A stretch of 64,000 nucleotides of DNA from Dehalococcoidia bacterium. GTDB lineage: Bacteria; Chloroflexota; Dehalococcoidia; Lucifugimonadales; UBA3495. A program made the translations under genes and the position numbers. Each line of letters begins with the position of its first letter. The stretch's first letter is position 1. Under the pieces are notes generated by a model, which worked only from the letters and a program-made list of their open reading frames with translations, searched no databases and was not told the origin of the DNA. Below, one piece after another: positions 31,245 to 64,000 of the stretch. The stretch covers positions 1,038,718 through 1,102,717 of the forward strand of contig CBDBPP010000005.1 of NCBI GenBank assembly GCA_965208825.1, in the 5' to 3' direction.

Positions 31245-31335
31245 AGGAAACGCCCTCACCCAAACCCTCCCCTATGGAGAGGGAATTTGCTCCGCGTTTG
31301 ACCGAGAAATTCAGAAAACCTTCAGGAGAAATAAC

Positions 31336-46152: not shown

Positions 46153-46356
46153 CTCCGGGATGACAGGTTCAGCCCAATGCTCCCGTCTACGCCTCCACTA
46201 TTGCCCTGGCAGACGCTGGTCCGGCCGAACAGGTCCATCCGTTCTTGGCGGGTCGGCAAGATGATCCCCTCGGCGCGGTCCAGGTCTCGGACTTGCGATC
46301 GGTTCCGAAATCGTGCGGCGGGAGGCACGGCTCGCGGGACGCTCCGTTACGAATCC

Positions 46357-48594
46357 TCAGTCTGATATGCCGGCGGGGGTGGGTTCCTCTTCCCGCACCG
46401 CTCCCTCGATCCCTAAGCGGGGCACCCATTCGAGGAACCGCGGATAGTACCAGTTCCACTCGCCCAGCAGCTTCATCGATGCCGGTACCAACACAGACCG
46501 GACGATGGTGGCGTCAATGAAGATGGCGAAGGCGAGTCCGAACCCCATTTGCTGCGCGGAAACGAACTGACCTGTGGAAAAGCCGCAGAACACGGCCACC
46601 ATGATCAGAACCGCGCCGGTGATCAGTCCCGCCGTCGAACGCAGCCCGTAGGCGACTGCCTCGGTGTTGTCTCGAGTCGAGCTAAACCGCTCGCGCACCC
46701 GGCTCAGCAGAAATACGTGGTAGTCCATGGAGAGGCCGAAGAGAATGCAGAAGAGGAACAGCGGCAGCCATGCCTCCACGATGTCCGATTGCTGGAATCC
46801 CAACGGCTCGCCCCATCCGTGAACGAACATCAGCACGATCATGCCGTATGAGGCGCCCACCGAGAGCAGGTTCAGGATGATCGCCTTGAGTGGAACAATG
46901 ATCGAGCTGAAAACCACAGTCAACAGGATGAAACTCATCCCCAGCACGAACACGAACACCCAGGGCGTGACACTTTCCACCATGTCGAAGAAATCCTTGC
47001 TGAAAGCGCTCTCGCCCGTAACGTAAACCCTTGCATCCACCCCTGCAAGTGCCTGGGGGACGTGGACATCCCGCAACCGGCCTATGCGGTCCACCGACTC
47101 GTCGGTGTAGGCGTCTCCCGAGGACTGGACTGTGACCAGTCCCAAGGTACCGGCCTCGTTGGTTTCGTAGGTCGGCCCGACGAAGTCCGGTGCCTCCTCC
47201 AGGGATGCGGTGAGCCGTTCCACAGCAGCCGCCACCGCCGGGTCATTGGTGTCGCCTTCGACTACGATATTGGTCGGGGTGACCGCCCCGGTGCCGCCCG
47301 AGAAGTCCCGTTCCAGGATGTCGTAAGCCTGCCTGCTCTGGAGGTCCGGGGGCAACGAGCTGAACCCGTTGAATCCGACGTCCAGGCTGAGGGCCGGCAC
47401 CGCCGCGGCGATCAGCAACCCTCCGGCGAGCACAAGGCTGGCAATCGGGTAGCGCATGACCGTTCGAGTGGTCCATCCCCAGAACCCGCCCGTGCTGTTC
47501 TCGGCCTCTGTTTCTGTCCGTTGAAGCCGGCGCCCCACTATTGGTATGCGCAGCGAGTTCACTCGGGGGCCGAGGAGGGATAGCACCGCGGGCAGGAGTG
47601 TCAGCGCCGCCATGACGGCGATGATGACTACGACTATGGGCCCCAGTCCCACGGAACGGAAGATGTTGAGCGGGACCAGAAGCATCCCCAGCAGCGCCAG
47701 CACCACGGTCATACCGCTGAAGAACACAGTCCGGTTTGCCGTGTCGCCAATAATCTCGATGGCGCTCAACTTGTCCTTTCCCTGGGCCAGCTCCTCGCGG
47801 AACCGGGAAACCACGATGAGGGAGTAGTCGATCCCCACGGCGAGCCCGATCATGGTCAGCGTCAGCAGGATCGTCTCCACCTGGGGTTCAGCCAAGCCAA
47901 TGGCCGCAACCGACCCCAGGGCAAGGACAATGCCTATTATGGCCAGTCCGATGGGAAGCAGCGCTGCGATTATGCTGCCGAAGAGCACTAGCAGGATGAC
48001 CAGCGCCGCGGGCACGCCGAAACTCTCCCCGCGCTGTATTTCCTGGGCCGCCAGTTCCGCCGTCTCATGGGTGAAGCTCGATTCCCCGAGAATGAAGTGC
48101 TCGAAACCGCCCTCCCCGCTGGTTGCGATGACATGCTCGTAGATTGGCCCTATTTCCTGGGAGGTGTCGTCCATGCTGCCCGCCAACTGGAACTGGATCA
48201 GCGTGGAGCGGCGGTCCCCGGACACGAGGAGCTCGCTACCGGTGTTGTGGTAGGTGAGCACGTTCTCGATGGTGGGAGGGCCCAGCTCGGCGACGGATCC
48301 GGCGAGAGACTCAACCCGCTCGGCGAAGGCGGGATCATACACCGTTTGTTCACCTGAACGGACTATAATGACTTCGTTGCGTAGCGTGGGCCCGGTGAGC
48401 CGTTCCACCAGCAGGTCCTTGCCCACCTGCGAATCCAGGGGGGTCGTGTATCGCGGTTCCTGAGTGATCGCATCGCCAAACCAGACGAACTGCGCCAGCA
48501 CGGCTATGACCACGAGGGCGACCCATAGGGCAATGGTTTTCCAGGGGCGGCGTGCGCTTGCGACAGCCAGCGACCTTGTCATGATATTCAGCAA
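46357..48594 (-). CDS. MMPL-family (RND-superfamily) transporter
   Basis: 745 aa with two blocks of about six TM helices separated by soluble domains. Contains SRFREELAQGKDKLSAIE...FFSGMTVVLALLGMLLVP. The start is TTG 48594 or ATG 48582. Confidence 0.8.
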   Translation of the reverse strand: MLNIMTRSLAVASARRPWKTIALWVALVVIAVLAQFVWFGDAITQEPRYTTPLDSQVGKDLLVERLTGPTLRNEVIIVRSGEQTVYDPAFAERVESLAGSVAELGPPTIENVLTYHNTGSELLVSGDRRSTLIQFQLAGSMDDTSQEIGPIYEHVIATSGEGGFEHFILGESSFTHETAELAAQEIQRGESFGVPAALVILLVLFGSIIAALLPIGLAIIGIVLALGSVAAIGLAEPQVETILLTLTMIGLAVGIDYSLIVVSRFREELAQGKDKLSAIEIIGDTANRTVFFSGMTVVLALLGMLLVPLNIFRSVGLGPIVVVIIAVMAALTLLPAVLSLLGPRVNSLRIPIVGRRLQRTETEAENSTGGFWGWTTRTVMRYPIASLVLAGGLLIAAAVPALSLDVGFNGFSSLPPDLQSRQAYDILERDFSGGTGAVTPTNIVVEGDTNDPAVAAAVERLTASLEEAPDFVGPTYETNEAGTLGLVTVQSSGDAYTDESVDRIGRLRDVHVPQALAGVDARVYVTGESAFSKDFFDMVESVTPWVFVFVLGMSFILLTVVFSSIIVPLKAIILNLLSVGASYGMIVLMFVHGWGEPLGFQQSDIVEAWLPLFLFCILFGLSMDYHVFLLSRVRERFSSTRDNTEAVAYGLRSTAGLITGAVLIMVAVFCGFSTGQFVSAQQMGFGLAFAIFIDATIVRSVLVPASMKLLGEWNWYYPRFLEWVPRLGIEGAVREEEPTPAGISD

Positions 48595-48817
48595 TATTGA
48601 AAATCGATATCAGTTCATACTAATTCATACGTTAAGTACATGCTAACCGACAAAGGGCCGACAACCGGAAACCGGATTTTACCGCGGCCAGGTGCGGCGA
48701 GTGGAGCGAAATTCCAGGTTTTGTGGGATGATCTACCTTGTTAAACTGGGAGAATCCCTCCAGTACCGAGGCCATTTAGATCACAGTTTCCCAAAATTTT
48801 TCCTGCGGAGACCAGGT

Positions 48818-49831
48818 ATGAAGTTCGGCATCTATAGCTCCATAGCCGACCCGCCTCGAGGCGAGAGACTCGACCTGCGGATTGATGAGGTCGTCGCGGA
48901 AGCCAAGCTGGCGGAGCGGGTGGGATTCGACTCCTGCTTCTTCGGTGAGCATCACCAGGACAAAGACGGTTTCCTCCCCTCTCCGTTGATTGTCGCGACG
49001 GCGGTGGCTGCCCAGACAACCACCCTGAACGTGGGCACGTCGGTAATCCTGCTGCCCTTGCACAACCCCGTGCAGGTGGCGGAGGACGTTATAACCCTGG
49101 ACCTGGTTTCCCGGGGAAGGGTGATCCTGGGCGTCGGCCTGGGCTATCAGGACGCGGACTTCCGGGCCTTCGAGGTGCCTATCCGCCAGCGCGTGGGCCG
49201 GTTCGAGGAGGGCGTGGAGATCATTCGCCACTGCTGGAGCGGGGAACCCTTCTCCTTCCACGGCGAATACCATCGACTGGAAAATCTGCACATCACTCCG
49301 CTCCCCTACCAGGACCCTGCTCCTCCCCTGTGGATCGGGGCCAGCACCATGCCGGGAGCACGGCGGGCCGGGCGTCTTGCCGATGGCTTCGTTGCCACCC
49401 CCAGTATCGACCTGGCCACAGCCGTCGAGCTGGCGGACGCTTACAGGGAGACCGCCTTGCGGGAAGGCCGGGAGAACAGGGTGATACTGATGCGGGACGC
49501 CTGGGTGGCGGAGACTCGCGCAGAGGCCGAGAGGGTGTACGGCCCTGAGGTGATTGCCGCCTACAAGTACTACTGGCGCAACGGCTTGCCTGACTTCCGC
49601 AGCGTCAGGGCGGAAGATGAGATAACCCTCGACAACGTCGGTCCGGACCGCTTGATACTCGGGGACCCTGAGGAATGCGTCGAGGAATACCGGCGCTGGA
49701 GCGAGGCCGTGGGCGCCGATTACTTCCTGCTGCGGCTACGGCACGCCCACTCGGGCGGCCCTCCCCACGAGAGGATTATGGAGGCCATTCGGCTGTTCGG
49801 GGAAGAAGTAATTCCTGCCTGCGCCGGTTGA
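48818..49831 (+). CDS. LLM-class flavin-dependent oxidoreductase
   Basis: The sequence begins MKFGIY and contains ERVGFDSCFFGEHH and GRVILGVGLGYQDADF. GGAG lies 10 nt upstream. Confidence 0.75.
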   Translation: MKFGIYSSIADPPRGERLDLRIDEVVAEAKLAERVGFDSCFFGEHHQDKDGFLPSPLIVATAVAAQTTTLNVGTSVILLPLHNPVQVAEDVITLDLVSRGRVILGVGLGYQDADFRAFEVPIRQRVGRFEEGVEIIRHCWSGEPFSFHGEYHRLENLHITPLPYQDPAPPLWIGASTMPGARRAGRLADGFVATPSIDLATAVELADAYRETALREGRENRVILMRDAWVAETRAEAERVYGPEVIAAYKYYWRNGLPDFRSVRAEDEITLDNVGPDRLILGDPEECVEEYRRWSEAVGADYFLLRLRHAHSGGPPHERIMEAIRLFGEEVIPACAG

Positions 49832-50332
49832 CCTCGGGCAGGGCCCGCGCTTATTTGGACCAACGGAGCGGCACCGAAGGGGCAATCCCTGGGGTTAATC
49901 CTCATGCCCCCAGGATCGTCCGTAATCATCCCGGATCGGTCCGGGTCGAATACTGCAATACCTTCTGGCGCCAGTCAAACGTGGCTCGGACACCTGGCGG
50001 TTGGTAACATTTGCGCCGGAGAGTGAGTCCGTGGCGAACCGATTAGCCCGGTATATTCCTCCACGTCGGGTTCCCGTTGCTCCCCCTGGAGGCATCTTGG
50101 TTTCTTTACAGGCCGGCAAGCGTTATCGTCCCAATTTGGCTGGTTCAACCATGCCACCGTCCGTCATTTCTGTAGATGCGGGGTAACACGTTAACAGATT
50201 GGCAGGAACAGGGGTGCCGGTCAGCAGGCGAAGGGGCGAAACACCGGGAGGGTTCTCGCCGTTTCACGCCACTGACACTGAATGTTCCCTTTCCCGCTAG
50301 CACTGGATTCGGAGGGCAGGTCAAAACAGCCA

Positions 50333-51244
50333 TCAGAGGATACCGTGCTCCGCCAGAAACCGGGTAAGGCCGTCCACGCATTGGCCCGGCTGTTCCAGCG
50401 GCAGAAAATGAGTCGCATCGGGCAGGAAGTCATAGTCCACTTCCACAATGTCACTCAGGTCCAGCGTGGGAAGGTAAGAATAGGGCAGCGTGGGGTCCGC
50501 CCCAATGACTTTTACGGGACAGTGGAGACTGGGAAAGTCCACAAGCACTGCGAAAGTGCTGGCGTAGTCCACAATCTGCGCCTCATACTCCCGGGGGCAT
50601 CGCAGCACAAATCCCGGCCCCTCATCGCTGGCGCGCAGTGTTGTTTCGGCCACCAGTTCCATGACCCCTGGCAACGCTCTTTTGAACATTGGCGAAAACT
50701 CCAGCACGCCTGACAGCTGGGACAGCGATTTGAATGTGGGTGTCCGGTTCCTGGCCGCAGCGGCAGCCTTGTTTGCCGCCATTTCGAATTCCTGTAAACC
50801 GCGCCCCGGCTTGCAAAGGGGAGGATCGAAAAGAACCAGGGCCGAGTACGGAGCACCCCGGGTGGACGAAAGCAGGGACACCAGGCCCGATATGGAATGA
50901 AAGACGCCCACGGTGGGTTTATCCCCGAGGGCGCGAAAGACCGACTCGATAATTAGATCGTGGTCCCGAACAAAGGATGGCATGTTGTGGTTATCGAGAG
51001 AGGACACGGAATTCCAGCCGTGGTTGCGCAGGTCATACAGAACCAGGTCAAAGTCGCTGGTCAGGAGAGACCAGAAAGGAAGGTACAGATCGATGGCCAG
51101 GCCGTTTCCATGGCTCAGCAGCAATCTCGGACCATCGGGATTTCCGTGCCGCCTCAGTATGATCCGGGTCTCGTGGTCCACGGGTATCTCGTGAACTGAC
51201 AAGGGCTCCGGCAGGGTCCAACTGGCGTCCGGTTGCATTGGCAT
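50333..51244 (-). CDS. Alpha/beta-hydrolase-fold protein (candidate chain-releasing or lipid-modifying enzyme of the PKS locus)
   Basis: 303 aa. Contains LLLSHGNGL (oxyanion region) and the nucleophile-elbow-like VGVFHSISGL. Confidence 0.65.
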   Translation of the reverse strand: MPMQPDASWTLPEPLSVHEIPVDHETRIILRRHGNPDGPRLLLSHGNGLAIDLYLPFWSLLTSDFDLVLYDLRNHGWNSVSSLDNHNMPSFVRDHDLIIESVFRALGDKPTVGVFHSISGLVSLLSSTRGAPYSALVLFDPPLCKPGRGLQEFEMAANKAAAAARNRTPTFKSLSQLSGVLEFSPMFKRALPGVMELVAETTLRASDEGPGFVLRCPREYEAQIVDYASTFAVLVDFPSLHCPVKVIGADPTLPYSYLPTLDLSDIVEVDYDFLPDATHFLPLEQPGQCVDGLTRFLAEHGIL

Positions 51245-51264
51245 GCAGCTAGTCCTTTGGCCGC

Positions 51265-51311
51265 AGATTTCCGCAGGTCGGAGAAACTTTATGCCGAACT
51301 TGCGGAAATCT
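51265..51311. promoter_or_regulatory. 11-bp inverted repeat AGATTTCCGCA-25 nt-TGCGGAAATCT just upstream of the hydrolase start
   Basis: Read directly from the sequence. A third partial copy, CCCGCAGTTTCC, follows at about 51319-51330. It could be an operator or a 5'-UTR hairpin. Confidence 0.3.
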
Positions 51312-51970
51312 CCACAGGCCCGCAGTTTCCCCGGCTATGGCGCTGACAGTATACGACTGAACCCACGGAGGTTTGACCGCTTTCCAGTCCGGGCCCGCTA
51401 CCAGTCGAATCGGCTTGGCTCACAGGGTCGTCTCCGGTGTTGCTGGCGCAAGTCCCATGGCCCCGGCGAAACCTGAACCCCCGTACATTCAATGGCAGTG
51501 GCCGGTCACCCCTGCAGCTTCTGCAGCGTGCCGAAGGCTCTCTGATGCGGCTGCTCCCCCCACGGTCTGTCATGGGAGTTCTCCGTACCTCCGTATTCCT
51601 GCGAGGGCCTAGGCCCAATGGACGGCGAGCAACAGAGAATCGTGACCGGGTTCTCTGCAAAAGGCGTGACGGGTGCACTCGTCTCCGCAAGCGACGCGGA
51701 TCACGTCGCCCGGCTCGTCACGGGCAGTGCGCTGGCGCCCTGGGTCAGTGCTGTCCGATGGGGAACGCGTTGCCGCACTGCAGACGCCTGCCCTACAGGT
51801 GATGACTCTGGGTCCGAGCCGAACGATTTCAATTTCAGCCTCCACCAACGCCTGTGTAACGAGGGGGCTGAGGGATGTTCCAGTTACAGTCCGAAACCGT
51901 GGTCATCGGTAGTCTCGCCGGCCCGACGTGGACCGGTCCGCCGTGAAATAAAGGCCCAAAGGTTAAGCGC

Positions 51971-52699
51971 TCATCGCACAATCTTTGTATACGCCAGCGC
52001 CGCTGCGAAATCCTCGGTGCTCAGGTCGACGAGAGTCCACGCCGGGGATTGTTTGCCAGGGAACCGGAAATCCGCCGCCTTTTCGCCCGAGATCATGCTT
52101 TCCGGGCCCTGGAACCCTGAGAAATCGGTATACAGGCCAGTGCCCGACCCTTTTGCCAGTGCCTCTTTCATCGTCCAGATGCGATAGAACAGATGCAGCC
52201 TTCTTTTCCCGGTCAAACCCAGCAGTTTCACTTTCTCGTCGGGCCCCATCACAGTGGCGATCAGGCCCTCCAGGTGGCGGCGCGCCAAACGCTCCTCGAC
52301 ATCCACTCCCACCTCGCTGTCCCTGGAGAGAGCGATCAGGCCGTGATTTACGCTGTGGCTCACGTTGAACCTCAGCGACGCAGGTGCGTCGTCCTTCAGC
52401 ACATAGGGTTTGCCATAGGGGGTTGTATCGAATGAAAGATGATGGTTGGGAGAGTCCAGCTGGGATGAGAGGATCGCCCGCAGGGCTGCTCTGCACAGGG
52501 TATACCGGCGGCCCGCACCGGGAAACAGGAACTTGTCGAGTCGCGACAGCTCATCCTTGTTGAGCCATCCGGCCGCTTCCGATTCGTGGGCAGGGTGGCG
52601 GCGCAGGTCTACATGTACAACCGCCACATCGCCTATAACAGAGATTGGGGACCACCACGGCCCTTCCTCCACGGCGGGAGCCCTCGACGGGAACATCAC
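51971..52699 (-). CDS. Sfp-type 4'-phosphopantetheinyl transferase
   Basis: Contains TPYGKPYV, FNVSHSVNHGLIAL, VGVDVE and WTMKEALAKGSGTGL. Confidence 0.85.
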   Translation of the reverse strand: MMFPSRAPAVEEGPWWSPISVIGDVAVVHVDLRRHPAHESEAAGWLNKDELSRLDKFLFPGAGRRYTLCRAALRAILSSQLDSPNHHLSFDTTPYGKPYVLKDDAPASLRFNVSHSVNHGLIALSRDSEVGVDVEERLARRHLEGLIATVMGPDEKVKLLGLTGKRRLHLFYRIWTMKEALAKGSGTGLYTDFSGFQGPESMISGEKAADFRFPGKQSPAWTLVDLSTEDFAAALAYTKIVR

Positions 52700-52753
52700 C
52701 GGAGGTGGGGGGCTTGCCGGTGGCTCAGTTCCGCTGCTGATGGTCGGACCGGT

Positions 52754-52999
52754 TCAGGAGGTCCTGGCCTCGATAAAGGACACCAGGTCTCCCATGGAGT
52801 TGATGCTTGCGCAGTCCTCGGTAGTCAACGTGAAGCTGAAGTCTTGCGCCACGACCTTGGCGAATTCGACGAACTCAACCGAGGAGAGCCCGGAGTCTCG
52901 CAAACTTGAGTCCAGAGCCAGGGGGCTCCCCTTTGAGCGCCCTTCGATTTCCAGGTTATCGTCCACCAGTTGCCGGATCCTTTCTTCCGTTGAAGGCAT
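52754..52999 (-). CDS. Discrete acyl carrier protein
   Basis: GGGAGGA lies 6 nt upstream of ATG 52999. The phosphopantetheine-site region reads LRDSGLSSVEFVEFAKVV. 81 aa. Confidence 0.75.
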   Translation of the reverse strand: MPSTEERIRQLVDDNLEIEGRSKGSPLALDSSLRDSGLSSVEFVEFAKVVAQDFSFTLTTEDCASINSMGDLVSFIEARTS

Positions 53000-53323
53000 T
53001 GCCTTTCCTCCCAATGGTTTTATCCGTTGTCGCTTGCCTGAAATGGCTGTTTAACCAAAGCCCGTGCAAAGTGACACCGAATGATATCACGATAATATCA
53101 CAAAATGTCTGCTGCAAGAGTTCACGAAACCGTGAGATACGTCTGGGCTATAGGAACGGACGGAACTGCATGATGCACCGGATCATATTGGGGACGCTTA
53201 AGGAGGATAGTGAGTTCCTCGCCTTATCGGGCTTTCCCCATGCATAAAGCGGAGCGGATAGACCAGGACTGGAAATTCCCTGTGGCCCTGGCCCATCGCC
53301 GATCACAAATCGGGCTGGCTGCC

Positions 53324-56211
53324 TCACCGTTTCTGCACCCAGAAGCTCCGGCGCTGGAAGGGGTATGCGGGGATAGAGATTTTCCGCCGCTGTTCCCCGG
53401 CGAACAATCCCTGGAATGACAGGGGCACACCGGAGGAGTAGGCCCTAGCGAGACTCCGCACGAACTGCTCCTGCTCCCTCGTTGCTTCTTCTTGCAGTAG
53501 CGGTAAGTCCTCCACCGTACCGGAACGCACTAGGCCCGGAGAAACTGCGCCGTGAGCCGGGCCAATCTCCACGACGAATTCGGCTTCCAGTTCCCGGAGA
53601 ATCTCTGACAGGTCCGAGGATGCCGCCCCCTGACTCATCGCCTGGTACCAGAAGGCTTTGTCCAGCTTGTCGGAGGCACGAATTACCCGGCCTGCTCCGT
53701 TGCTGAACCAGGCTATGGAAGGCACTGTGGCCTCGATGGGGTCCAGAGAGGTTTCGCCGCGTTTTATCGACAACAGCAGTCGCAGCCCATCCTCGAGGGA
53801 TACCACTCCCGAGGCGAAGGCTGCCGCCACCTCGCCTGCACCTTGTCCGTAGACCACTGACGGCTGAACTCCGGCGCCCTTTAGCAGGACCGTGAGACCC
53901 GCGCCGAGGGCGTAAGCAGCGGCCTCCTCCTGTTCGCCGTTCGGCGGCCCGTCTCCGAACAACGCACCGAGCAGTGGGGCGCCCAGTTCCTCCTTGGCCA
54001 CCTCGTCGCATCGGTCCAGCACCGCGCGGAAGACCGGTTCGGTCTCGTAGAGCTCTCGGCCCAGCCCGCCTGTTTGACCTGGCCCACCCCAGTAGACGAA
54101 GGCCGTTCGGACGGAGGCGGTCGGCGGGGACTGGTCGTCCGCGCCCTCCATTGGAACCAGGGATGCCAGGCCCTGCTTCAACTCCACTGCGTCGCGGAAG
54201 GGGAGGGCTCTTCGGTGGTCGAAGTGACTCCTGCCCGTACCAGCCGACCACGCCATGTTCGACAGGGTGGTCCACGCCTCCTCGTTGTTTCGATCAAACA
54301 GTTCCGCCCGTTCCTCCAGCCAGGACAGGTAACGCTGCGCCAAGTCGCTCATTGCCCCCAATGTCTTCCCCGACATCGGCAGGAGCCGGACCCGCCGCTC
54401 CCCCGGTCCGGTCTGTTGTTCCGCCAACACACCGGTTTCGGCCGACACGAGCCGTGGTGCTCCCGCGGGCTCAGGATTTGGGTCCTCGCCGGTGGCAGGC
54501 GCTCCGTAACCCTCCAGGACGACGTGAGCGTTGGTGCCCGAGAGACCGAAGGAGTTGACGGCGGCCAGTGGCCGTCGGTCCCGGCCGTTCGGCCAGGCCA
54601 TGGCTTCCGTCGAAATGCGCAGCGGCATCCGGTCCCAGTCGAAATCGGGATTGGGGTCGCTGAAGTTCAGGTGGGCCGGAATCATCCTCCGATTCAAGGC
54701 AAGGACGGCCTTGATGATGCTTGCCATGCCCGAGGCCCATTCCAGGTGGCCGATATTGGCCTTGGCGGAGCCGACCACCAACGGTTGGTCCGAGGTGCGG
54801 CCCCTGCCATAGACCGAGGCGATGGCGCGCAGCTCGATGGCGTCACCCAGCAGCGTGCCCGTTCCGTGGGCCTCCAGGAAGTCCACCTCCGAGGGGGCAA
54901 CACCCGCTCGGTCCAGGGCATCCTGCATGACGCGCTCCTGGGCCGGGCCGTTGGGAGTCTGGATGGCGGCGCTGACGCCGTTCTGGTTGAGCGCCGTTCC
55001 GCGGACCAGGCCCCAGATTCGGTCCCCGTCCTCTTCCGCCTCTCCGGCCCGCCGCAGCACCAGGACCCCGCACCCTTCGCCGCGCACGAAGCCGTCGGCT
55101 GCGGCGTCGAAGGCGCTGCACCGGCCCGACTCGGAGAGCATTCCGTGTTCCCTATGGAATTGGACTATCGGCTGCGAGAGCAGGGCGTTGACCCCCGCTG
55201 CCAGGGCCAGGTCCACCTCGCCCCTTTCCAACGCCGCCACCGCCTGGTGCACGGCGGCCAGGGACGAGGCGCAGGCCATGTCGATGGGCATGGCCGGGCC
55301 CTCCAGACCGAGGGCGAAGGCGACCCTGCCTGCCGTGACGCTGCTGGTGGTTCCGAAGAAGCTGTCGTTGCCGCCGCTGGCGGCGATCACTTCCCGGTAC
55401 TCGCTGCCGCCGATGCCTAGGTAGAGGCCGGTGCGGCTGCCCCGCAGCCTGCCGGGGTCGATGCCCGCGTCCTCCAGCGCGTGCCAGGTGGTCTCCAGCA
55501 GCATCCGTTGCTGCGGATCCATGGTGCGGGCCAATATGGGCTGTATCCCGAAGAAGCGGGCGTCGAACCGGTCGATGCCGTCGACGAACCCTCCCAGCCG
55601 GTATGCCGGGTCCTCGGCCATGGGGTCGCCGGTCAGGCCGGCCCAGGATCCCGGGTCACGGCGGCCGTCGGTGATCGTTTGCCGCCCCGACTCCAGGATG
55701 TCCCAGTAGGCCGACAGGTCCGGTGCGCCTGGGAATCGACAGGCCATGCCCACGATGGCGATGCTGTCGCCGAGGTTCCCGCTTTCCAGGCGCGGAGGTG
55801 GCGCCGGCATCTCCTCTCGCGCAGCCCCATTTGCGCCCCCGGCCCCCTCGAGTCCCTCGACGATATGGGCGGCCAGGCTGGCCACGTTTGGGTAGTCGAA
55901 TATCGCCGAGTTGGACAGCGCGAACTGTCCCGCCAGGGAGCGATTAAGCCGGTTGCGCAACTCGACGGACATCAGCGAGTCCATGCCCAGGTCGAAGAAA
56001 CCTACCTGCTGCGCCGGGGCCGATGGCAGGCGCAGCACGGCCTGCAACTCCCGCTGCAGGAAGGCGGTGGCAATGTTCGCCTGTTCCAGGGCGGGAGAAT
56101 CCCGGAGCTGGGACACCAGGTCTATTTCCGCCGTTGGCCCGGCATCGTCGCCTTCCAGTTCCCTGGTTTCCTCCATCAGTTCATCCAGGAACGGGGAGGG
56201 CTCAAAGAGGT
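53324..56211 (-). CDS. Type I PKS, distal fragment: ACP-KS-AT0 (AT remnant)
   Basis: ACP motif is GFFDLGMDSLMSVEL (Ser codon 55976-55978). The KS motifs are DMACASS (Cys codon 55271-55273), EAHGTGT and KANIGHLEWASG. The AT-like region has GQGAGE in place of GHSxGE (53831-53848), and the protein ends ...IPAYPFQRRSFWVQKR. The track start TTG 56224 and its first residues derive from the IS end. Confidence 0.85.
53360..54109 (-). other. Degenerate, shortened AT-like domain (AT0)
   Basis: VVYGQGAGEVAAAFASG aligns with AVVGHSLGEIAAAHAAG of the upstream AT, so His is replaced by Gln and the nucleophile Ser by Gly. About 160 residues separate the motif from YPFQ, against about 265 in the intact AT of the same protein. 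Confidence 0.65.
54509..55768 (-). other. PKS ketosynthase domain (Cys-His-His triad intact)
   Basis: Contains IAIVGMACRFPGA, DMACASS, EAHGTGT and GHLEWASG. Confidence 0.8.
55850..56092 (-). other. PKS in-cis ACP domain
   Basis: Contains LGMDSLMSVELRNRL. Confidence 0.75.
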
Positions 56212-56248
56212 TGTCCCGCGTCAACTACTTTTGCCGATTGAGCGTCAA

Positions 56249-57025: not shown

Positions 57026-58524
57026 CCGCACACCTCCGTCCCGGCCAGGCTGACGGTGAGCAGACCGTCGTAGACCTTCAGGTCCGGCTTCCCGGACAGG
57101 ACCAGCGCTGGGGCCTCGATCGGCTTGGGCTCGACCAGCTCCCGCACCTCGGCGTAGTTGAAGGACCGGCCGGACTCCAGGAGCAGGGACAGCGCGCTGT
57201 CCACATTGGCCTCCATGGTGGTGGCCGCCAGGTGCAGTATCCGCACGTACTCCACATCGGCCCGTTCGCCCCGCCATTCCCGGAGGGCGTCGTAGGCCAG
57301 GCGGAAGCGCAGGGTGGGAAACAGCTGCTCCCGGTAGCGGTAGCGGGCGAAGGCCCCGGGCTTGCGCACCAGGGAATGGATGACGTGGCGGTAATTGACG
57401 TTGACTTCCCCATCGCCGTGCACCCGCGCCATGCGTTCCACGAGGTGGCCCTTGTAGTACACTTCCACCCAGTCGGCGTACAGACGGACCTGCACCTCCT
57501 GGCCGATCAGGCGGGAGGGCACGCTGTAGCTCCGTCCCGCTACCTGGATGGTGCTCCACCGGCGCACCTTGGACTGGTAGTTGGCGTATTCCGGCATGGG
57601 GGCTGGCGGCAGGGGCCGTAGGCAAGCCATTTCCTGCTCCAGCTTCCCCCTGACCAGGCGATTGCGTTTCTCCACCATCTCCCGGACGAAACCGGCGTAG
57701 TCGTCGGCGGTGTGGAAATCGCGGCTGCCCCGCAGGATGAGGGCCTGGTCTATGGCCTCCTTGAGGCGATAGTGGGCGTGCTCGGCGACGCCGTTTTCAT
57801 GGCTCTGGCCGCGATTGATGCGCGTGGACCGGAGTCCGTAGTGGTCCAGCAGGGCGGCGTAATTGTCGTTCAGCGCCCGGGCGCGGCTGCGGCGTATTTC
57901 ATGGGTGAGGGCGGCGGCATTGTCCGAGCGCACCACCTCCGGGACGCCGCCCAGGGTCCAGAGGGCATTCTGCAATCCCTGCTTGAGGGCCAGGAAGGTC
58001 TCGCCGCCGGCCACCTCGGCGTAGTGCCACCCCGAGTGGCTGAGGATCAGATGGAACAGCAGGTGGGGGTAGGGCTGGCCGGCGACGGTCACTCCCAGGG
58101 CCTTGCCGTGAGTGAAGTCCATCTGGGCTTCCCGTCCCGGCGGATGCTCTTGGGGGAAGTACACCTCCTGATCGGGACCGTGCAACGCCCGCCAGTCCTG
58201 CAATCGCCGTTGCAGGGTGCGCAGCTGGGAGGCGTCGAACCGGCCGGGATGGCGCTCCTCCAGCCATTCGATAATCGTCGTCGCCTTCAGCTTCCCCGTC
58301 GGATCGCCCCGCAGCAGGGGCTCAATCTCCTCCTCCCACACCCCGTCGAAGGGGTCGGGCCTGGTTCGCCACCAGCGCTCTTGCTTCGTCTCTGACGGCA
58401 AGGACCCGCGCTGCCACTTGCGCGCTGAGCGCACGCTCATCCCAGCCACCGCGGCCGCCGTCTCCTGGGTCTTTCCTTTCATAAGCCTCTGCCTCAATAG
58501 CCTGACTTGTCGGTCTTTGATCAT
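57022..58524 (-). CDS. istA: IS21-family transposase IstA
   Basis: 500 aa with an N-terminal HTH (KGKTQETAAAVAGMSVRSARKW) and a DDE region (...EAQMDFTHG...VVRSDNAAAL...). Confidence 0.85.
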   Translation of the reverse strand: MIKDRQVRLLRQRLMKGKTQETAAAVAGMSVRSARKWQRGSLPSETKQERWWRTRPDPFDGVWEEEIEPLLRGDPTGKLKATTIIEWLEERHPGRFDASQLRTLQRRLQDWRALHGPDQEVYFPQEHPPGREAQMDFTHGKALGVTVAGQPYPHLLFHLILSHSGWHYAEVAGGETFLALKQGLQNALWTLGGVPEVVRSDNAAALTHEIRRSRARALNDNYAALLDHYGLRSTRINRGQSHENGVAEHAHYRLKEAIDQALILRGSRDFHTADDYAGFVREMVEKRNRLVRGKLEQEMACLRPLPPAPMPEYANYQSKVRRWSTIQVAGRSYSVPSRLIGQEVQVRLYADWVEVYYKGHLVERMARVHGDGEVNVNYRHVIHSLVRKPGAFARYRYREQLFPTLRFRLAYDALREWRGERADVEYVRILHLAATTMEANVDSALSLLLESGRSFNYAEVRELVEPKPIEAPALVLSGKPDLKVYDGLLTVSLAGTEVCG

Positions 58525-58608
58525 TCCGGCACCTCCGTGCCGGAGGGTTTACCTCATCTCTGACCGGCAAAAATAATCGACGCTACCGGCATTCCTTATT
58601 GTCGTTAA

Positions 58609-60468
58609 TCAGAGGTTTTCTCCAAAGACCGGCCAGTCGACAGCCGCCACCATGGAGGCGGTCACATCCTGGGCCACCAGTTGGTCCAGGGCCCTGATGC
58701 CCTGCTGCGGGGAGATCCAGCCGGTACCGGACGCCGCCAGTTGCCGCTCGATCCGTTCCCGCTGTTCCTCCGCCTCTCCCAGGCCGGACCAGGCGCCCCA
58801 GGCTATGGACTGCCCCGGAAGTCCCCGGGAGCGCCGGTAGCCGGCCAGCTGGTCCAGGAAGGCGTTGGCCGCGGCGTGGTTGCCCTGCCCTGAATTCCCC
58901 AGTACCCCGGTCACGCTGGAAAACAGGACGAACATGTCCAGATCCATGTCCTGCGTGGCCCGGTGCAGGTGCCAGGCGCCCAGGATCTTGGGCCATAGCA
59001 CCTGCTCGAACCGGTCCCAGCTCTGGTTGCCCAGGGCCCCGTCGGAGAGCACGCCGACGCTGTGTATGACCCCCGCCAGGGGCGGCAGGTCCCTTTCCAA
59101 GTGTTCCAGCATGGAGTCCAGGGCCTCCCCACTGGTGACGTCGGCCAGCTCCACGTGGACCCTGGCGCCATTCTGCCGCAGCGCCTCGATGGCCTTCTCG
59201 GTCTTCGGGTCCGGGGGCCGGCGACCGTTGAGGACGATGGCGCCCGCGCCCCTCTCGGCCAGCCAGCCGGCGACGGCGGTGCCGATACCGCCCAGGCCGC
59301 CCGTGACGAGGTAAGTTCGGTCGGCGCGCAGTTGGCCCGTTGCCAGGGGTGGCATCACCATGACGTTCTTGCCGATGTGCCGGGCCGAACGCATGAAGTC
59401 CATGGCCGCGACGATTTCCGTCATCGGCCACCTGTTGTGGACCAGGGGCTGGAGATCCCCAAAGGTGAACCTGTTCGTCACCCTCCTCAAGGACGCGCCC
59501 GGCACCCCCGGGGAATGGATTTTCAGGGCATCCACCTCCAGGACCCGGTAGGCGACGTCGGGGCGGTATGCGGCCATGTCCTGCACGCTCCAGATGTCAC
59601 GACGGCTCATTTCCACGAACCGGCCGTTGGGGGCCAGGCACGACAGGCTGGCCTCGATGTACCCCGGCCCGGTCAGGCTGTTGAGGACAACGCTGACGCC
59701 CTCCCCGCCAGTGGCTTCCATGATCTGTTTGCCGAAGTCCGTGGTCCGGCTGTCGAGGACGTCGCGGATACCCAGGGACCGCAGGTAGTCCTGCTTGGGA
59801 GCGCTGGCGGTGGCGAATACCTCCGCGCCCACCGACTGCGCCAGCTGGATCGCGGCCAGGCCGACCCCGCCGGAGGCGGTGTGGACCAGCACCCGGTCGC
59901 CGGGGGCCAACCCGGTGAAGTCGAAGGATAGCTCGGCGGTGACGAAGGACGTGGGTATGGTGGCCAGTTCCGGCGTCGCCAGGCCCTCGGGGGCGTGGGC
60001 CACCATCTCGGCGCGGGTTACCAGCTCCGGGCGGAATGAGCCGATCGCCAGGCCGATCACCCGGTCGCCGGGCGCGAATTCCTCCACGTCAGGCGCGACC
60101 TCCAGGATGCGGCCGCAGAACTCCTTGCCCAGCATGGGGTCCAGGTCTTCGACCCCCATGCCCAGCAGCACGTCAGAAAAGTTCAGCCCGGTGGCCTCCA
60201 CGGCTGCGCGTACCTCTCCCTCTTTCAGTTCCCTGGACATGAGTGCCTCGGCGTGGAGACCTGAGAGATCACCGCCGGAGTCGGGCACCATTGTCCATGA
60301 GGTGTCCTCGGGCAAGGACTGCCTTTCCTGCCCGGATCTGCTGCGGAGGAGACGGGCCGCCAGTCTTTTTCCGTCCCGGTAGGCGATATGGGTTTCCCGG
60401 TCCGGACGCACCAGCTCGCCGGTCAGCCCTGTCACGGGAATGTCGAAGGAGGGGTCAAGATCGATCAT
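58609..60468 (-). CDS. Type I PKS, middle fragment: rest of psiKR, ER and KR; the stop codon is supplied by the IS end
   Basis: The ER NADPH motif is LVHTASGGVGLAAIQLAQ and the KR motif is TYLVTGGLGGIGTAVAGWL. The KR catalytic region reads SSVTGVLGNSGQGNHAAANAFLD, with His where Tyr is expected. The fragment ends VDWPVFGENL followed by a stop that lies within the IS terminus. Confidence 0.85.
   Translation of the reverse strand: MIDLDPSFDIPVTGLTGELVRPDRETHIAYRDGKRLAARLLRSRSGQERQSLPEDTSWTMVPDSGGDLSGLHAEALMSRELKEGEVRAAVEATGLNFSDVLLGMGVEDLDPMLGKEFCGRILEVAPDVEEFAPGDRVIGLAIGSFRPELVTRAEMVAHAPEGLATPELATIPTSFVTAELSFDFTGLAPGDRVLVHTASGGVGLAAIQLAQSVGAEVFATASAPKQDYLRSLGIRDVLDSRTTDFGKQIMEATGGEGVSVVLNSLTGPGYIEASLSCLAPNGRFVEMSRRDIWSVQDMAAYRPDVAYRVLEVDALKIHSPGVPGASLRRVTNRFTFGDLQPLVHNRWPMTEIVAAMDFMRSARHIGKNVMVMPPLATGQLRADRTYLVTGGLGGIGTAVAGWLAERGAGAIVLNGRRPPDPKTEKAIEALRQNGARVHVELADVTSGEALDSMLEHLERDLPPLAGVIHSVGVLSDGALGNQSWDRFEQVLWPKILGAWHLHRATQDMDLDMFVLFSSVTGVLGNSGQGNHAAANAFLDQLAGYRRSRGLPGQSIAWGAWSGLGEAEEQRERIERQLAASGTGWISPQQGIRALDQLVAQDVTASMVAAVDWPVFGENL
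58774..59322 (-). other. PKS ketoreductase catalytic subdomain (Tyr to His at the catalytic position)
   Basis: Contains TGGLGGIG and HSVGVLSDGAL (LxD, B-type-like). The sequence GNHAAAN has CAC at 58876-58878. Confidence 0.7.
59353..60297 (-). other. PKS enoylreductase domain
   Basis: MDR-type domain with GLNFSDVLLGMG and HTASGGVGLAAIQLA. Confidence 0.7.
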
Positions 60469-63400
60469 CCGGGGGGTGCAGGTTTCCTGCCTCCCGGGCC
60501 ACCGCCTTGCCGAAGCCCCAGAGCGAGGCGCCCGCCAGCTCCGCCACGCTGTCGCGCATGTAGTCGCGTTCCAGGGCCTGGGCGCCCCGGGTCACGAACC
60601 AGGTGCCCAGGTTGGGCAAGGTTCCCGCGTCGAGGATGCCCTGCACCATGGCCAGGGCCGAGGCCCCCGCCTTCCTCGTATCCTGGGCCAGTTCGCTGGT
60701 TGAGGCTTCCCTTCCATGGCCGTCAAGGGAGACCAGGTGCACCAGTCCGCTGAAAGGCGCATCCTTGGGCAGTTTCTCGATGAGCGAGCGCCAGTCCTCC
60801 CTGTTTTCCGGGTCCAGCGAGACCCGCATGATTCCATCCGGGGAGACGGATCCGGCGCCGTTGACCTGCGCCCCGGCCAGCGCCACGGTCTGGTTCTGCG
60901 CCGCCAGCTCGGCGGCGAGCTCCTCTGCCACGGCGCCTTCGTCCGACGCCAGTACCCAGACCCCTCGCGGCTGGACTATCTCGCCGGGCCCCCGGGCCAT
61001 GATGACTCCGGAGCCGAGGGGAGGCTCGTCGCTCCCCCGATCTCCGCCCAACACCCTGGCATCCTCCATCCCGACGTCGGTGAGCGCACGGACCCAGGTG
61101 TCCGGGGAGGCCAGGGCGTGCTCGGTCCTGTAGGCATCGGAAAACCGCCACCAGCCGTCCAGCTGCCCAAAGGTCAGGTCCTGCCACCCTCGGGCCCGGA
61201 GACCCTCCAGGGCCATCAACTGCCCCGAGGGGGCCAGCAGGTCGCGGCAATGGGAGAGAGTCTCGCCCAGGTCCCTGGTGGCGTGCAGCACGTTTACCGC
61301 GATGACCAGGTCGTAGGAGTGCAGTTCGAAACCCTGGGTGGCCGGATCCCTTTCCACGTCCAATGTGCGGTATTCCATGGGCGCGCCGTATTCCTCGAAG
61401 CGCTCCTCTGCCGAGGCGAAGAAACCGGCGGAGATGTCGGTGAAGACGTATTCGAAATTATCCGCCGGGAGCTGCGGAAGTACGACGGCGGTCCCCGAGC
61501 CGGTACCGCCCCCCACTTCCAGCACCCGCAGGGAACGATCCCCGGGCCACTGCGCCACGGCGGAGGTCACCGCATCGGCCAGGAGCCGGTTGGATGCTCT
61601 AGATGCCGGGGCGGTGAAGTAGAAATCCGCAGCATTCGGACCGTCGCTCCGGAACAGGATGGACAGGGGGTCCGTATTGCCCTGCAGCACCTCGGACAGG
61701 GCAGCTCCGCTCCGGCGCAGCAGACCCACCTCGTTTGCACCGTGGGGATGGCGCTCGGTGATCAGGTCCGCGAAGCTCTCCGGATCGGCCAGGGCCTCGT
61801 CCGGGAGGGGATCGCCAGCCCCGATGGTCACCCGGAAACTGTCCGTCCCGGTCGGGACCAGTACACCGGCATCACAGAGCAGTTTCAGCATCCGGCCCAT
61901 CAGCCGGGAATGAGCTGGCATTACTTCGAAACGTGCCAACAGGTCGTCGGCCCTGACGGCTTCACCGGCGGTTCTGTGCCAACCCAGCCGTTCGAGGGCG
62001 TGGAGCACGTAAGAACGGGAGAGTCTCTCCAGATCATCCAGCATGGTGGCGCGGTCCCCGATGCCGACTCCCTCCTCTCCCAGGTAACCGGCGAAGGTAT
62101 CGACCGTCCCGGCGGTTTCCGATGGAGAGATCAGCTCCCCGGCGGAAAGCAAGGCGGTGGAAAGAGGGGCATCCCGCCAGACGGTCTCGTACAGCAGACC
62201 CTGGAGGGCTTCCGAGGCGGAAAGCAGGGAGGCCCTGGTGGCCCGCTTCACGGTGAATCCGGACAGCCCCCCGACGGGTTTTCCCTCCTCGTTGTACAAC
62301 CACATGTCCCCGGTCAGGGTCTCCGGCGACGAAGCCACCCCGTCAGCTTGGGCAGTAGCCCCGCCCGAAATTCGCAGTCGAGCATGGCACACCACCCGGT
62401 CCTGCAACGGGCCGTCCAGCCAGAAACGTTCCCAGCCGAAGGGCAAGTAGGTCTCGTCGCCCCCAACACCGGAAATCATGCGGGTGGCTGAAAGCACCTG
62501 GAAGCAGCCGTCAAGGAGCAGGGGATGGATCTCCATACCCGCGCCGTCGCTCGGTCCCTGCAGCGCGATTTCCCCGACAGCTTCTGAGCTCTCGCACCAC
62601 AGCCCGGTCACGGTGCGCAGGCTGGGGCCGAATGCCAGGCCCGAGGCCGCTTTGTCCCGGTAATAGGCGGCCAGGTCCTGCTCCCGCAGCCTGCGCTTGA
62701 GCTGGGCGAAATCCACCCACTCCCCGCTTGGGTGGCGGTCAGGACCCTGTTCGATGTCACCCTCGGCGTGCAGCGTCCAGCCCTCCCCGGCGGAATCACG
62801 GCTGTAGACCTCGAAGTGGCGGGACTGCCCTGTTCTCGCCCCGTCGGTAACTATCTGTAGGCGTTTGCCAGCCGACTCCCCATCGCTGTCCTCGGGGAAC
62901 ACCAGCGGACTGTGCAGTTGAAGGTCGCTGACCACGGAGGTGGACGCTCCCTCGGTGAAGGGAACGGAGGCCGCCATGGCCCCGTATACCGCGCCGGGCA
63001 TGACCACCCGGCCGTACACCCGGTGATCGTCCAACCAGGCGGGATCGGTCGGGAGCATTTCCGTCTCGAACATGACCTCGCCCCGGGGCGACTCGTGCCT
63101 GGTTCCCAGCAGGGCGTGGGCGTCGCTCGACTGCGCTCGCCTGGCCGAGGGGACCCAGTGGCGGCGGCGCTGGAAGGGGTAGGTCGGCAGCGGAATCCTC
63201 CGACGCCTTTCGCCAGCGAACAACCCCGGAAAATGCAGGGGCAGCCCGGCCTCGTACGCTCGTGCGACGGCCCGAGCGAAGGCCTCGGCCCGCTCCGGCT
63301 CCGACCCGTCGGCAGCAGGCCGAAGCAGGCTGGGCATCACGAGGGGCGCCCCGGGCCTGCCCGGACCCTCCGGCCAGTTGAGAGATACCAGGGGACCCAG

Positions 63401-64000
63401 GATGGCGTGCGGCCCGAGCTCGATCACGGCGTCCACTCCCAGGTCCGCCAGGCTTTCCACGCAACCGAGGAAGGCTACGGGCTGCCGGGCCTGCCCGCGC
63501 CAGTAGGCGCCGTCCATCGCCGTTTCTGGTCCGACGGGCTTTCCGGTTATATTGCTGATGAGCGGGGTCGAGGGAGCGGCCACCTCCACACCGTCGAATA
63601 CGGCTTCCAGGCCGTCCAGGGCCGGCTCAACGAGGGGGCTGTGGTAGGCCGGGCTTGGCCTCAGCCGAAGCACGTTCATGCCCTCCGATTCCAGGAGGCT
63701 GCAGAATTCGTCAACCTCCCCGGCGGGGCCGCTGATCACCTGCTGGGTGCCGTTGTCCACCCCGATGCAGAGGTCCGAGGAACCCTGGGACTCATGCCAG
63801 CGGTTGACCGCCACCTCTACACGGGATGCGGGGGCGAACACGGCGGCCATGGCTCCGGCCCTGGGGATTGCTCCCATCAGTCTTCCTCTGGTGGAGGCGA
63901 ATCTGAGTCCGGTCTCGAGGGAGAACACGCCGGCGGCATGGGCCGCGGCAATCTCCCCCAGGCTGTGGCCCACCACCGCGTCGGGGCGGAGGCCCAGGCT
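60455..64000 (-). CDS. Type I PKS, proximal fragment: AT-DH-cMT-psiKR; the N-terminus is beyond the right window edge
   Basis: The frame stays open to 64000 (…SLGLRPDAVVGHSLGEIAAAHAAG, the AT GHSLGE motif). The post-AT linker is YPFQRRRHW, the DH motif is LDDHRVYGRVVMPGAVY, and the methyltransferase motif is LRVLEVGGGTGSGT. The psiKR part ends ...SLWGFGKAVAREAGNLHPP and then shifts frame. Confidence 0.85.
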   Translation of the reverse strand, partial: SLGLRPDAVVGHSLGEIAAAHAAGVFSLETGLRFASTRGRLMGAIPRAGAMAAVFAPASRVEVAVNRWHESQGSSDLCIGVDNGTQQVISGPAGEVDEFCSLLESEGMNVLRLRPSPAYHSPLVEPALDGLEAVFDGVEVAAPSTPLISNITGKPVGPETAMDGAYWRGQARQPVAFLGCVESLADLGVDAVIELGPHAILGPLVSLNWPEGPGRPGAPLVMPSLLRPAADGSEPERAEAFARAVARAYEAGLPLHFPGLFAGERRRRIPLPTYPFQRRRHWVPSARRAQSSDAHALLGTRHESPRGEVMFETEMLPTDPAWLDDHRVYGRVVMPGAVYGAMAASVPFTEGASTSVVSDLQLHSPLVFPEDSDGESAGKRLQIVTDGARTGQSRHFEVYSRDSAGEGWTLHAEGDIEQGPDRHPSGEWVDFAQLKRRLREQDLAAYYRDKAASGLAFGPSLRTVTGLWCESSEAVGEIALQGPSDGAGMEIHPLLLDGCFQVLSATRMISGVGGDETYLPFGWERFWLDGPLQDRVVCHARLRISGGATAQADGVASSPETLTGDMWLYNEEGKPVGGLSGFTVKRATRASLLSASEALQGLLYETVWRDAPLSTALLSAGELISPSETAGTVDTFAGYLGEEGVGIGDRATMLDDLERLSRSYVLHALERLGWHRTAGEAVRADDLLARFEVMPAHSRLMGRMLKLLCDAGVLVPTGTDSFRVTIGAGDPLPDEALADPESFADLITERHPHGANEVGLLRRSGAALSEVLQGNTDPLSILFRSDGPNAADFYFTAPASRASNRLLADAVTSAVAQWPGDRSLRVLEVGGGTGSGTAVVLPQLPADNFEYVFTDISAGFFASAEERFEEYGAPMEYRTLDVERDPATQGFELHSYDLVIAVNVLHATRDLGETLSHCRDLLAPSGQLMALEGLRARGWQDLTFGQLDGWWRFSDAYRTEHALASPDTWVRALTDVGMEDARVLGGDRGSDEPPLGSGVIMARGPGEIVQPRGVWVLASDEGAVAEELAAELAAQNQTVALAGAQVNGAGSVSPDGIMRVSLDPENREDWRSLIEKLPKDAPFSGLVHLVSLDGHGREASTSELAQDTRKAGASALAMVQGILDAGTLPNLGTWFVTRGAQALERDYMRDSVAELAGASLWGFGKAVAREAGNLHPPDDRS
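61097..61759 (-). other. PKS C-methyltransferase domain
   Basis: SAM motif I, LEVGGGTGSG, lies at about 61499-61528. Also present are DLVIAVNVLHAT and LLAPSGQLMALE. Confidence 0.7.
62222..63121 (-). other. PKS dehydratase domain
   Basis: HxxxGxxxxP lies at 62996-63025 (HRVYGRVVMP). A later motif reads LLLDGCFQ. Confidence 0.7.
63170..64000 (-). other. PKS acyltransferase domain (partial, active-site GHSLGE present)
   Basis: Domain limits were estimated from residue counting in ORF 60455..63976. The specificity-region motif reads PAYHS. Confidence 0.7.

Follow-up and report, generated by a model that had tools for sequence, protein, structure and literature searches.

A recently disrupted copy of a conserved four-gene polyketide synthase cassette, very probably Sup, in a Dehalococcoidia genome

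A 64,000-nucleotide stretch of the genome of a Dehalococcoidia bacterium (assembly GCA_965208825.1, contig CBDBPP010000005.1, positions 1,038,718 to 1,102,717; hereafter the window, to whose positions all coordinates refer) carries a large polyketide synthase (PKS) gene that is broken by an insertion sequence (IS). The locus raises two questions, namely to which pathway the gene belongs and whether that pathway is decaying in this lineage, as had been proposed from the sequence alone (the sequence-only reading). The open reading frames (ORFs) of positions 46,357–64,000 were scanned against Pfam, and the repaired synthase and its neighbours were compared with related loci. With good confidence, the locus can be described as a recently IS-disrupted copy of a conserved four-gene cassette, very probably that of Sup, the sponge symbiont ubiquitous PKS. 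It is a member of a known, abundant and functionally uncharacterized family and not a new pathway.

The Pfam scan of the long ORFs gives the following order on the minus strand: a megasynthase with acyltransferase (AT), dehydratase (DH), C-methyltransferase (cMT), enoylreductase (ER), ketoreductase (KR), acyl carrier protein (ACP) and ketosynthase (KS) domains and a terminal, inactive AT-like domain (AT0); a discrete ACP; a phosphopantetheinyl transferase (PPTase); a spacer; and an α/β-hydrolase. A luciferase-like (LLM) oxidoreductase gene and an MMPL transporter gene lie next to these. The same gene content and order had been given in the sequence-only reading, and its description of a lipid- or fatty acid synthase (FAS)-like PKS, single-module and fully reducing, with a cMT and a dedicated ACP, PPTase and hydrolase, also holds. 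The megasynthase lies in three minus-strand fragments: AT-DH-cMT with a structural KR (ψKR) region (60455–64000, extending past the window end), ER-KR (58609–60468) and ACP-KS-AT0 (53324–56224). Removal in silico of the IS, of one copy of its target duplication and of a single C leaves 2,756 codons uninterrupted up to the natural stop.

With the repaired protein as query, 7,185 matches were obtained. The best 120 of them, from which the size and identity statistics were taken, are almost all 3,350–3,550 amino acids long, cover 100% of the query and are 53–74% identical to it. The full architecture is KS-AT-DH-cMT-ER-KR-ACP-KS-AT0 in approximately 3,450 amino acids, as in the homologue P0001 and an alignment of 103 full-length members, the latter being the basis of the residue counts out of 103 given below. 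In P0001, the first KS (KS1) begins about 30 residues from the N-terminus, with no loading module, and by comparison with this protein the KS1 and the first part of AT1 of the window copy, an estimated 690 amino acids, lie outside the window. The terminal KS-AT0 and the discrete ACP, which had been judged not to fit the standard picture, are an invariant part of the architecture in more than 100 relatives.

The small proteins of the window were also compared by tblastn with 44 loci of this family, 43 of which, all full-length, came from a scan of species-representative genomes. A hydrolase homologue (51–71% identical) lies beside the PKS in 31 of the 44, some of the other loci ending too early to tell, and the ACP and PPTase accompany the hydrolase in co-directional or convergent orientation. 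Of the accessory genes, that of the hydrolase is the best conserved, with more than 120 cluster representatives at 62–73% identity, in which HGNG, Ser117, Asp249 and His278 are invariant. In the window it is a protein of 303 amino acids (50333–51244, minus strand; Pfam Abhydrolase_6), supD-like by position and presumably an enzyme of chain release or transfer. The Sfp/HetI-type 4'-phosphopantetheinyl transferase (51971–52699, minus strand), supC-like by position, matches Pfam ACPS and AASDHPPT_N, with a HetI-like NCBIfam match below the cut-off, and is a conserved neighbour in related loci. The discrete ACP (ACP2; 52754–53014, minus strand), supB-like by position, has 86 amino acids and a Pfam PP-binding match, and its homologue adjoins the PKS in related loci.

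The two closest loci show the cassette most clearly, and both are uninterrupted at the position of the IS, as the sequence-only reading had suggested checking in related metagenome-assembled genomes (MAGs). In L001 (74% identical), the PKS is accompanied by an 81-amino-acid ACP, a PPTase and a 282-amino-acid hydrolase, and then by a convergent 554-amino-acid SulP/STAS permease; in L082 (81% nucleotide identity), it is accompanied by an ACP, a PPTase and a 303-amino-acid hydrolase. DNA synteny of the window with both loci ends at the hydrolase stop codon. A homologue of the MMPL protein was found in none of the 44 related loci and an adjacent LLM gene likewise in none. Since the two genes are not conserved there, synteny stops at the hydrolase and the window itself has three LLM paralogues, they are placed outside the unit. 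Judged by gene conservation, the predicted functional unit is the PKS, ACP, PPTase and hydrolase, with MMPL and LLM as chance neighbours. Of the flanking genes named as members of the locus in the sequence-only reading, the hydrolase is thus conserved with the PKS, and the MMPL and LLM genes are not.

The relatives come from MAGs of Dehalococcoidia (the majority), Caldilineaceae, Spirochaetia, Thermoanaerobaculia, Latescibacterota and Rhodothermales, and further from Ca. Palauibacter, Ca. Multivorans, Acidimicrobiales and alpha- and gammaproteobacteria. The cassette has apparently spread across uncultured symbiont lineages of many phyla by horizontal transfer. As a separate observation, the Dehalococcoidia locus L008 (12937–21611) carries extra PKS-like sequence that separates the supA-like gene from the ACP, PPTase and hydrolase genes.

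A resemblance to Sup had been noted in the sequence-only reading, and this identity is very probably correct, given that architecture and phylum spread agree with it. Sup PKSs are unusually small and mono-modular, dominate sponge metagenomes and are very diverse (PMC4245539; PMC3908369); they are also candidates for the synthesis of mid-chain-branched fatty acids (PMC4245539). The window PKS is likewise mono-modular and FAS-like, with a cMT and small accessory genes. SUP gene-cluster families occur in Chloroflexota, Spirochaetota, Proteobacteria and Acidobacteriota MAGs from sponges, independently of taxonomy (PMC9426513), and the phyla of the relatives match this spread. Degenerate primers that recover supA target the KS motifs DPQQ and HGTGT (PMC4245539), both of which are present in the second KS (KS2) of the window (MDPQQRM and EAHGTGT) and in KS1 of P0001 (LDPQQRM and EAHGTGT). 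In clone pAPKS18, from an A. aerophoba symbiont, SupE is a permease some 557 amino acids long (PMC3908369), and the L001 permease, with its 554 amino acids, has a matching position. Broken copies are frequent in both Sup and the present family. The window copy differs in its IS21 element and +1 indel, in having no permease and in a spacer before the hydrolase that is about 670 bp longer.

The second ubiquitous mono-modular PKS/FAS family of sponge symbionts is Swf, the sponge symbiont widespread FAS (PMC3908369). SwfA differs in being KS-AT-DH-ER-KR-ACP, without a methyltransferase (MT) and without DPQQ, and is accompanied by a reductase/sulfotransferase and a radical-SAM enzyme as partners (PMC4245539; PMC3908369). 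None of these partners is present at the window locus. The locus was filed as Sup-type because the architecture, the taxon spread and the SupE-sized permease agree and Swf, the only other ubiquitous mono-modular family described, differs. The supA-supE cluster was reportedly described by Fieseler and colleagues in 2007 and by Hochmuth and colleagues in 2010. SupA presumably ends in KS-AT0, and SupB, SupC and SupD are presumably the ACP, PPTase and hydrolase, respectively; the isolate codes of several of the relatives look like those of sponge studies.

The interruption itself is well defined. A 2,400-bp element of the IS21 family (56212–58611, minus strand) lies in the KR-ACP linker of the PKS, with Pfam matches to rve, Mu-transpos_C_2 and IstB_IS21 and with TG...CA termini. 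It encodes, on the minus strand, IstA (57022–58524; helix-turn-helix, rve and Mu-type C-terminal domains; NCBIfam NF033546, 203.6 bits, curated cut-off 160) and the AAA+ helper IstB (56249–57025; NF038214, 227.1 bits, curated cut-off 200). Motifs of 20 nucleotides are repeated at both ends, and the element is flanked by a perfect 5-bp target-site duplication, ACCTC (58612–58616 and 56207–56211, minus strand). In its istA/istB genes, TG...CA ends, multiple terminal repeats and 5-bp duplication it agrees with the IS21 family, and nothing about it is unusual. The corresponding site is empty in both closest loci, where the alignment to the window reaches both IS boundaries; L082 reads GAAAATCTCTTTGAGCC, and the window reads GAAAACCTC-[IS]-ACCTCTTTGAGCC. 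The perfect duplication and the two empty sites confirm the IS as a lesion. The nearest IstA in the protein collection is 92% identical. This IS21 lineage is also very abundant in the same metagenome sources, in which several 90%-identity clusters contain 859–1,605 member sequences (P0407–P0526).

A +1 frameshift is found in addition, at a C6 homopolymer (60471–60476, minus strand) in the ψKR structural region between the cMT and the ER, where three-frame translation indicates that the frame needs C5. The upstream frame ends in ...EAGNLHPP and the downstream frame starts with RMIDLDPS; deletion of one C gives ...EAGNLHPRMIDLDPS, the homologue P0001 having EAGYLQPRMIDLDPG at this site. The homologous DNA reads CATCCCAGG in L082 and CAACCCAGG in L001, neither with such a C-run. 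As a feature of the sequence, the frameshift reported previously is therefore present.

Whether these lesions belong to a gradual loss was examined at 427 alignment columns in which at most one of the 103 relatives differs from the rest. The repaired window protein deviates at none of them, with other members deviating at up to seven. When P0001 serves as the outgroup, 121 substitutions are unique to the window lineage and 103 to its sister P0106. The ACP, PPTase and hydrolase genes are intact. The absence of deviations, the lack of a rate excess, the intact accessory genes, the intact IS genes, the abundance of the IS lineage and the perfect target duplication together indicate that inactivation of the PKS is recent and not a progressive decay. 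Long-term decay was rejected by the two substitution tests. The view of a decaying pathway is therefore upheld with respect to the disruption of the gene and not with respect to a gradual decay.

A third lesion had been seen in the KR (58786–59316, minus strand; Pfam KR), which retains its NADPH motif, Lys, Ser and Asn and has His in place of the catalytic Tyr. The motif is GQGNHAAAN, and the His, encoded by a CAC codon at 58876–58878, falls on the catalytic Tyr when the domain is aligned to the AmphB KR. The same His is present in 115 of 116 homologues with a recognizable motif, and in all 103 of the full-length members, in which the Lys, Ser, Asn and NADPH motif are also invariant (103/103). 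From this conservation, the His is evidently a family trait under strict selection and not a lesion. Since it is family-wide, there are two lesions (the IS and the additional C) instead of the three independent ones previously counted, and the second of the two is possibly an assembly error.

The distribution of this variant was followed in a KR-domain search of a representative library, the ranking of which was dominated by giant multi-KR PKSs and was post-processed by motif and hidden Markov model. The sample, taken from the 150 best 50%-identity representatives and biased to relatives of the query, held 320 Tyr-type and 20 His-type motifs. A cMT lies within 900 residues upstream of the KR in 13 of the 20 His-type cases, three more being N-terminally truncated, and in one of the 320 Tyr-type cases. 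It may tentatively be suggested from these motifs, from the invariance of the His and from the intact DH and ER, at somewhat less than even confidence, that the family KR is a working 'His-type' enzyme (HxxxN for the near-universal YxxxN) that has possibly co-evolved with cMT-containing modules, although the association of His with cMT may reflect common descent rather than function. A shallow literature check, which covered a general review only, returned no description of a His-type KR.

The remaining domains of the synthase, all on the minus strand, have intact motifs, except for the last. The C-terminal part of AT1 with the post-AT linker (63152–64000; Pfam Acyl_transf_1) has the active-site motif GHSLGE, the Ser of which is kept in 103/103 relatives; its specificity motif is PAYHS, with xA[Y/F]HS in the family. 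The DH (62228–63118; Pfam PKS_DH_N and PS-DH) has intact HxxxGxxxxP and DxxxQ motifs in family-invariant columns. The cMT (61064–61588; Pfam Methyltransf_12/23/25) carries the S-adenosylmethionine (SAM) motif LEVGGGTGSG and the ER (59362–60222; Pfam ADH_N, ADH_zinc_N and ADH_zinc_N_2) the NADPH motif HTASGGVGLAA; by the column statistics both motifs are invariant in the 103-member alignment, as is the DH His. The integrated carrier domain ACP1 (55862–56059; Pfam PP-binding) has GMDSL, with the Ser in 103/103 relatives. KS2 (54662–55765; Pfam ketoacyl-synt and Ketoacyl-synt_C) has an intact Cys-His-His triad (DMACASS, EAHGTGT and NIGHLE), of which the Cys is kept in 103/103, the first His in 96/103 and the second His in 103/103 members. 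AT0 with its post-AT linker (53327–54100; partial Pfam Acyl_transf_1 match) forms the C-terminus of the PKS. It reads GQGAGE, and the position of the nucleophile is Gly in 90 and Ser in 2 of the 103 relatives, the Ser being missing in 101/103. In two family members, P0071 and P0115, the second AT still reads GHSLGE, and the second KS-AT region of P0071 resembles a recent duplicate of the first.

From this architecture a sequence of reactions can be proposed for an intact copy. The PPTase would activate ACP1 and the free ACP, and KS1, with no loading module, would be primed by a fatty-acyl thioester from primary metabolism. AT1 would place malonate on ACP1 and, after condensation, the cMT would add an α-methyl group from SAM. 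The His-type KR, the DH and the ER would then fully reduce the unit to give 2-methyl-acyl-ACP1. As its Cys-His-His triad is intact, KS2 may be competent for one more condensation, in which the chain would speculatively be extended onto malonyl carried by the free ACP. Loading of the latter would have to occur in trans, by AT1 or FabD, because AT0 has no serine. The free ACP might finally hand the branched chain to the fatty-acid machinery, and the hydrolase might release or transfer the product. The expected product would be a mid-chain methyl-branched fatty acid or lipid, in agreement with the hypothesis published for Sup.

Two characterized systems resemble parts of this scheme. Mycocerosic acid synthase (MAS) of mycobacteria, which among solved structures is nearest in sequence (9d2y, E = 4e-252), is likewise a single fully reducing module that uses a fatty-acyl primer and makes methyl-branched chains. 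However, the branches of MAS products come from methylmalonyl-CoA, MAS has no cMT, its KR has the normal Tyr, and it lacks the C-terminal KS-AT0 and the dedicated free ACP, PPTase and hydrolase, all of which are present at the window locus. Similarly, the order of parts in Pks13, the mycolic acid condensase (ACP-KS-AT-ACP-TE), is mirrored by ACP1-KS2-AT0, the free ACP and the hydrolase, and the best Pks13 alignment (9f48) lands on ACP1-KS2. By analogy, this points to a condensation with subsequent transfer by the hydrolase. Pks13 nevertheless has an active AT and a fused ACP-TE, whereas the AT of the window is dead (GQGAGE) and its ACP and hydrolase are separate genes; nor is a FadD-type activating enzyme present at the window locus. 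The likeness is a generic one at the level of the KS and not orthology.

Several points weigh against the interpretation of the locus as a recently broken Sup cassette with a branched-lipid product. The name Sup, although very probably right, is based on the architecture, the spread over taxa, a single neighbouring gene and the presumed domain order of SupA. The record titles of the related MAGs do not name a sponge as source. The SupE-like SulP permease is sporadic rather than family-conserved, and is absent from the window and from all loci other than the three given below. Literature searches returned neither a proven Sup product or published domain map nor a demonstrated product for the family; the hand-off from KS2 to ACP2 and the role of the hydrolase are inferred; and a KR without Tyr could be inactive, which would undercut a fully reduced product. 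The additional C at 60471–60476, in turn, may be an assembly or sequencing error. The permease was found as an ORF convergent to the hydrolase in L001 (22737–24401), as one about 7 kb downstream in L025 (20293–21927) and as a 114-amino-acid remnant in L082 (22518–22859); as it occurred only in these three, it was rejected as a conserved cassette member.

It is on the identity of the family that the first two alternatives differ. A distinct and unnamed PKS family with the architecture of Sup, for which the label would be wrong, is unlikely. No database match is named Sup or SupA-D, the comparison was made with descriptions of Sup, a SupE-like permease is rarely adjacent and the KS-AT0 end of SupA is presumed. 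Against this, the family is very large and highly varied, its phyla are those reported for the SUP gene-cluster families, and only two ubiquitous mono-modular families have been described, of which Swf differs in MT, DPQQ and partners; the closest locus, moreover, has a permease of SupE size. Far less probable still is an actinobacterial, mycocerosic-acid-type lipid pathway with MMPL export and LLM tailoring that is gradually being lost through three lesions. Such a pathway could appeal to MAS as the closest solved structure, to the MMPL and LLM genes directly beside the hydrolase and to the two lesions that are real. It is at odds with the failure of either gene to recur beside the PKS in the 44 loci, with a synteny that stops at the hydrolase and with the three LLM paralogues of the window. 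The mycobacterial link with MMPL is not conserved in this PKS family, and the actinobacterial analogy drawn previously does not fit relatives that are mostly Dehalococcoidia and other non-actinobacterial symbiont MAGs. Furthermore, the methyl group would come from the cMT, AT1 has xAYH/xAFH where methylmalonyl-specific ATs have YASH, the His of the KR occurs throughout the family and substitutional decay is not seen.

With Sup as the preferred identity, it is the state of the gene that the other two alternatives concern. According to one, only the IS is real, as a single, very recent and possibly polymorphic insertion, and the extra C is a long-read homopolymer error. This has a substantial chance of being correct, if a little short of an even one. 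The indel sits in a C6 run, homopolymer indels being typical long-read errors, and the repaired protein is otherwise perfect. Near relatives from assemblies of a similar kind are broken as well: in L082, on a contig labelled '3x', the same gene is split into at least five ORFs; the cluster-mates of P0001 (P0122, P0124 and P0130) are pieces of 1,606, 721 and 988 amino acids from a single contig; and approximately six of 40 family loci (L006, L012, L026, L028, L034 and L035) have a split PKS. However, other window genes have full-length Pfam matches and no obvious frameshift, so the assembly does not appear error-rich. Frameshifts were found in 15.4% of PCR-derived supA fragments (PMC4245539), so real ones may be common in the family, and a second lesion would have been costless once the IS had killed the gene. 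As a separate observation, about 15% of the family loci have the PKS in two or more ORFs, near the figure for supA amplicons, either as real pseudogenes or through assembly error. According to the other alternative, the interrupted synthase still works as the reassembling polypeptides KS-AT-DH-cMT, ER-KR and ACP-KS-AT0, which is highly improbable. All synthase domains are intact, the ORF reopens in the IS end in the original frame (TTG, 56224) and an ATG (60468) follows the frameshift. Yet a ribosome-binding site is not evident upstream of either restart, docking domains are absent, the frameshift runs through the ψKR structural subdomain and none of the family members has a natural split at either position.

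The interval between PPTase and hydrolase is a non-coding spacer of 726 bp (51245–51970) by ORF, Rfam and locus comparisons, in which no convincing ORF, Rfam family, tRNA, repeat elsewhere in the window or similarity to the related loci fetched was found. Its equivalent measures 67 bp in L001 and 81 bp in L082. A 14-nucleotide inverted repeat (51265–51278 and 51298–51311) lies within it, immediately upstream of the hydrolase start. Beyond the hydrolase, outside the cluster, are the LLM oxidoreductase gene (48692–49831, plus strand; Pfam and NCBIfam) and the MMPL/RND-type transporter gene (46357–48594, minus strand; Pfam MMPL), for which the NCBIfam matches are generic and far below the cut-offs. 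The three LLM paralogues lie within 18 kb (31225–32187, 40806–41672 and 48692–49831), and two of them match only profile positions of about 27–227 of 314.

Other features of the window lie further from the cassette. Two large-subunit genes of molybdenum hydroxylases of the xanthine dehydrogenase/CO-dehydrogenase type are found at 10639–13998 and 15742–18090, the first with an N-terminal extension of about 340 amino acids that has no Pfam match. An ORF with cadherin-repeat domains (2–1279, minus strand) leaves the window at its start; cadherin repeats are eukaryote-like and have frequently been noted among sponge symbionts. Along with the best relatives and the LLM paralogues, these hydroxylase and cadherin-domain genes give weak support for a Dehalococcoidia-like Chloroflexota as the probable host. 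N- and C-terminal domains of a thiamine pyrophosphate (TPP) enzyme are encoded on overlapping ORFs in different frames (42700–43341 and 43268–43912, plus strand), which may be either a natural two-subunit decarboxylase or another frameshift. Between the dienelactone hydrolase gene and the MMPL gene, about 1.45 kb (44903–46357) has a lower G+C content of 0.59 and no ORF with coding-like codon bias.

By itself, the window adds little, as it provides one more, broken copy of a very abundant symbiont cluster. The adjacency of MMPL and LLM, the KS-AT0 and the KR His could be misread as signs of novelty or decay, and these are corrected here. IS21 insertion, and perhaps homopolymer slippage, inactivates copies, and about 15% seem broken in amplicon surveys and MAGs. 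The window locus makes the Sup product no more testable than do the many intact orthologues. If the His of the KR is catalytic, it would mark a previously undescribed subtype of KR adapted to α-methyl-β-keto substrates. The conserved core of the family is the PKS, ACP, PPTase and hydrolase, and the Cys-His-His of KS2, the dead second AT and the His-type KR must be accounted for in work on the Sup product.

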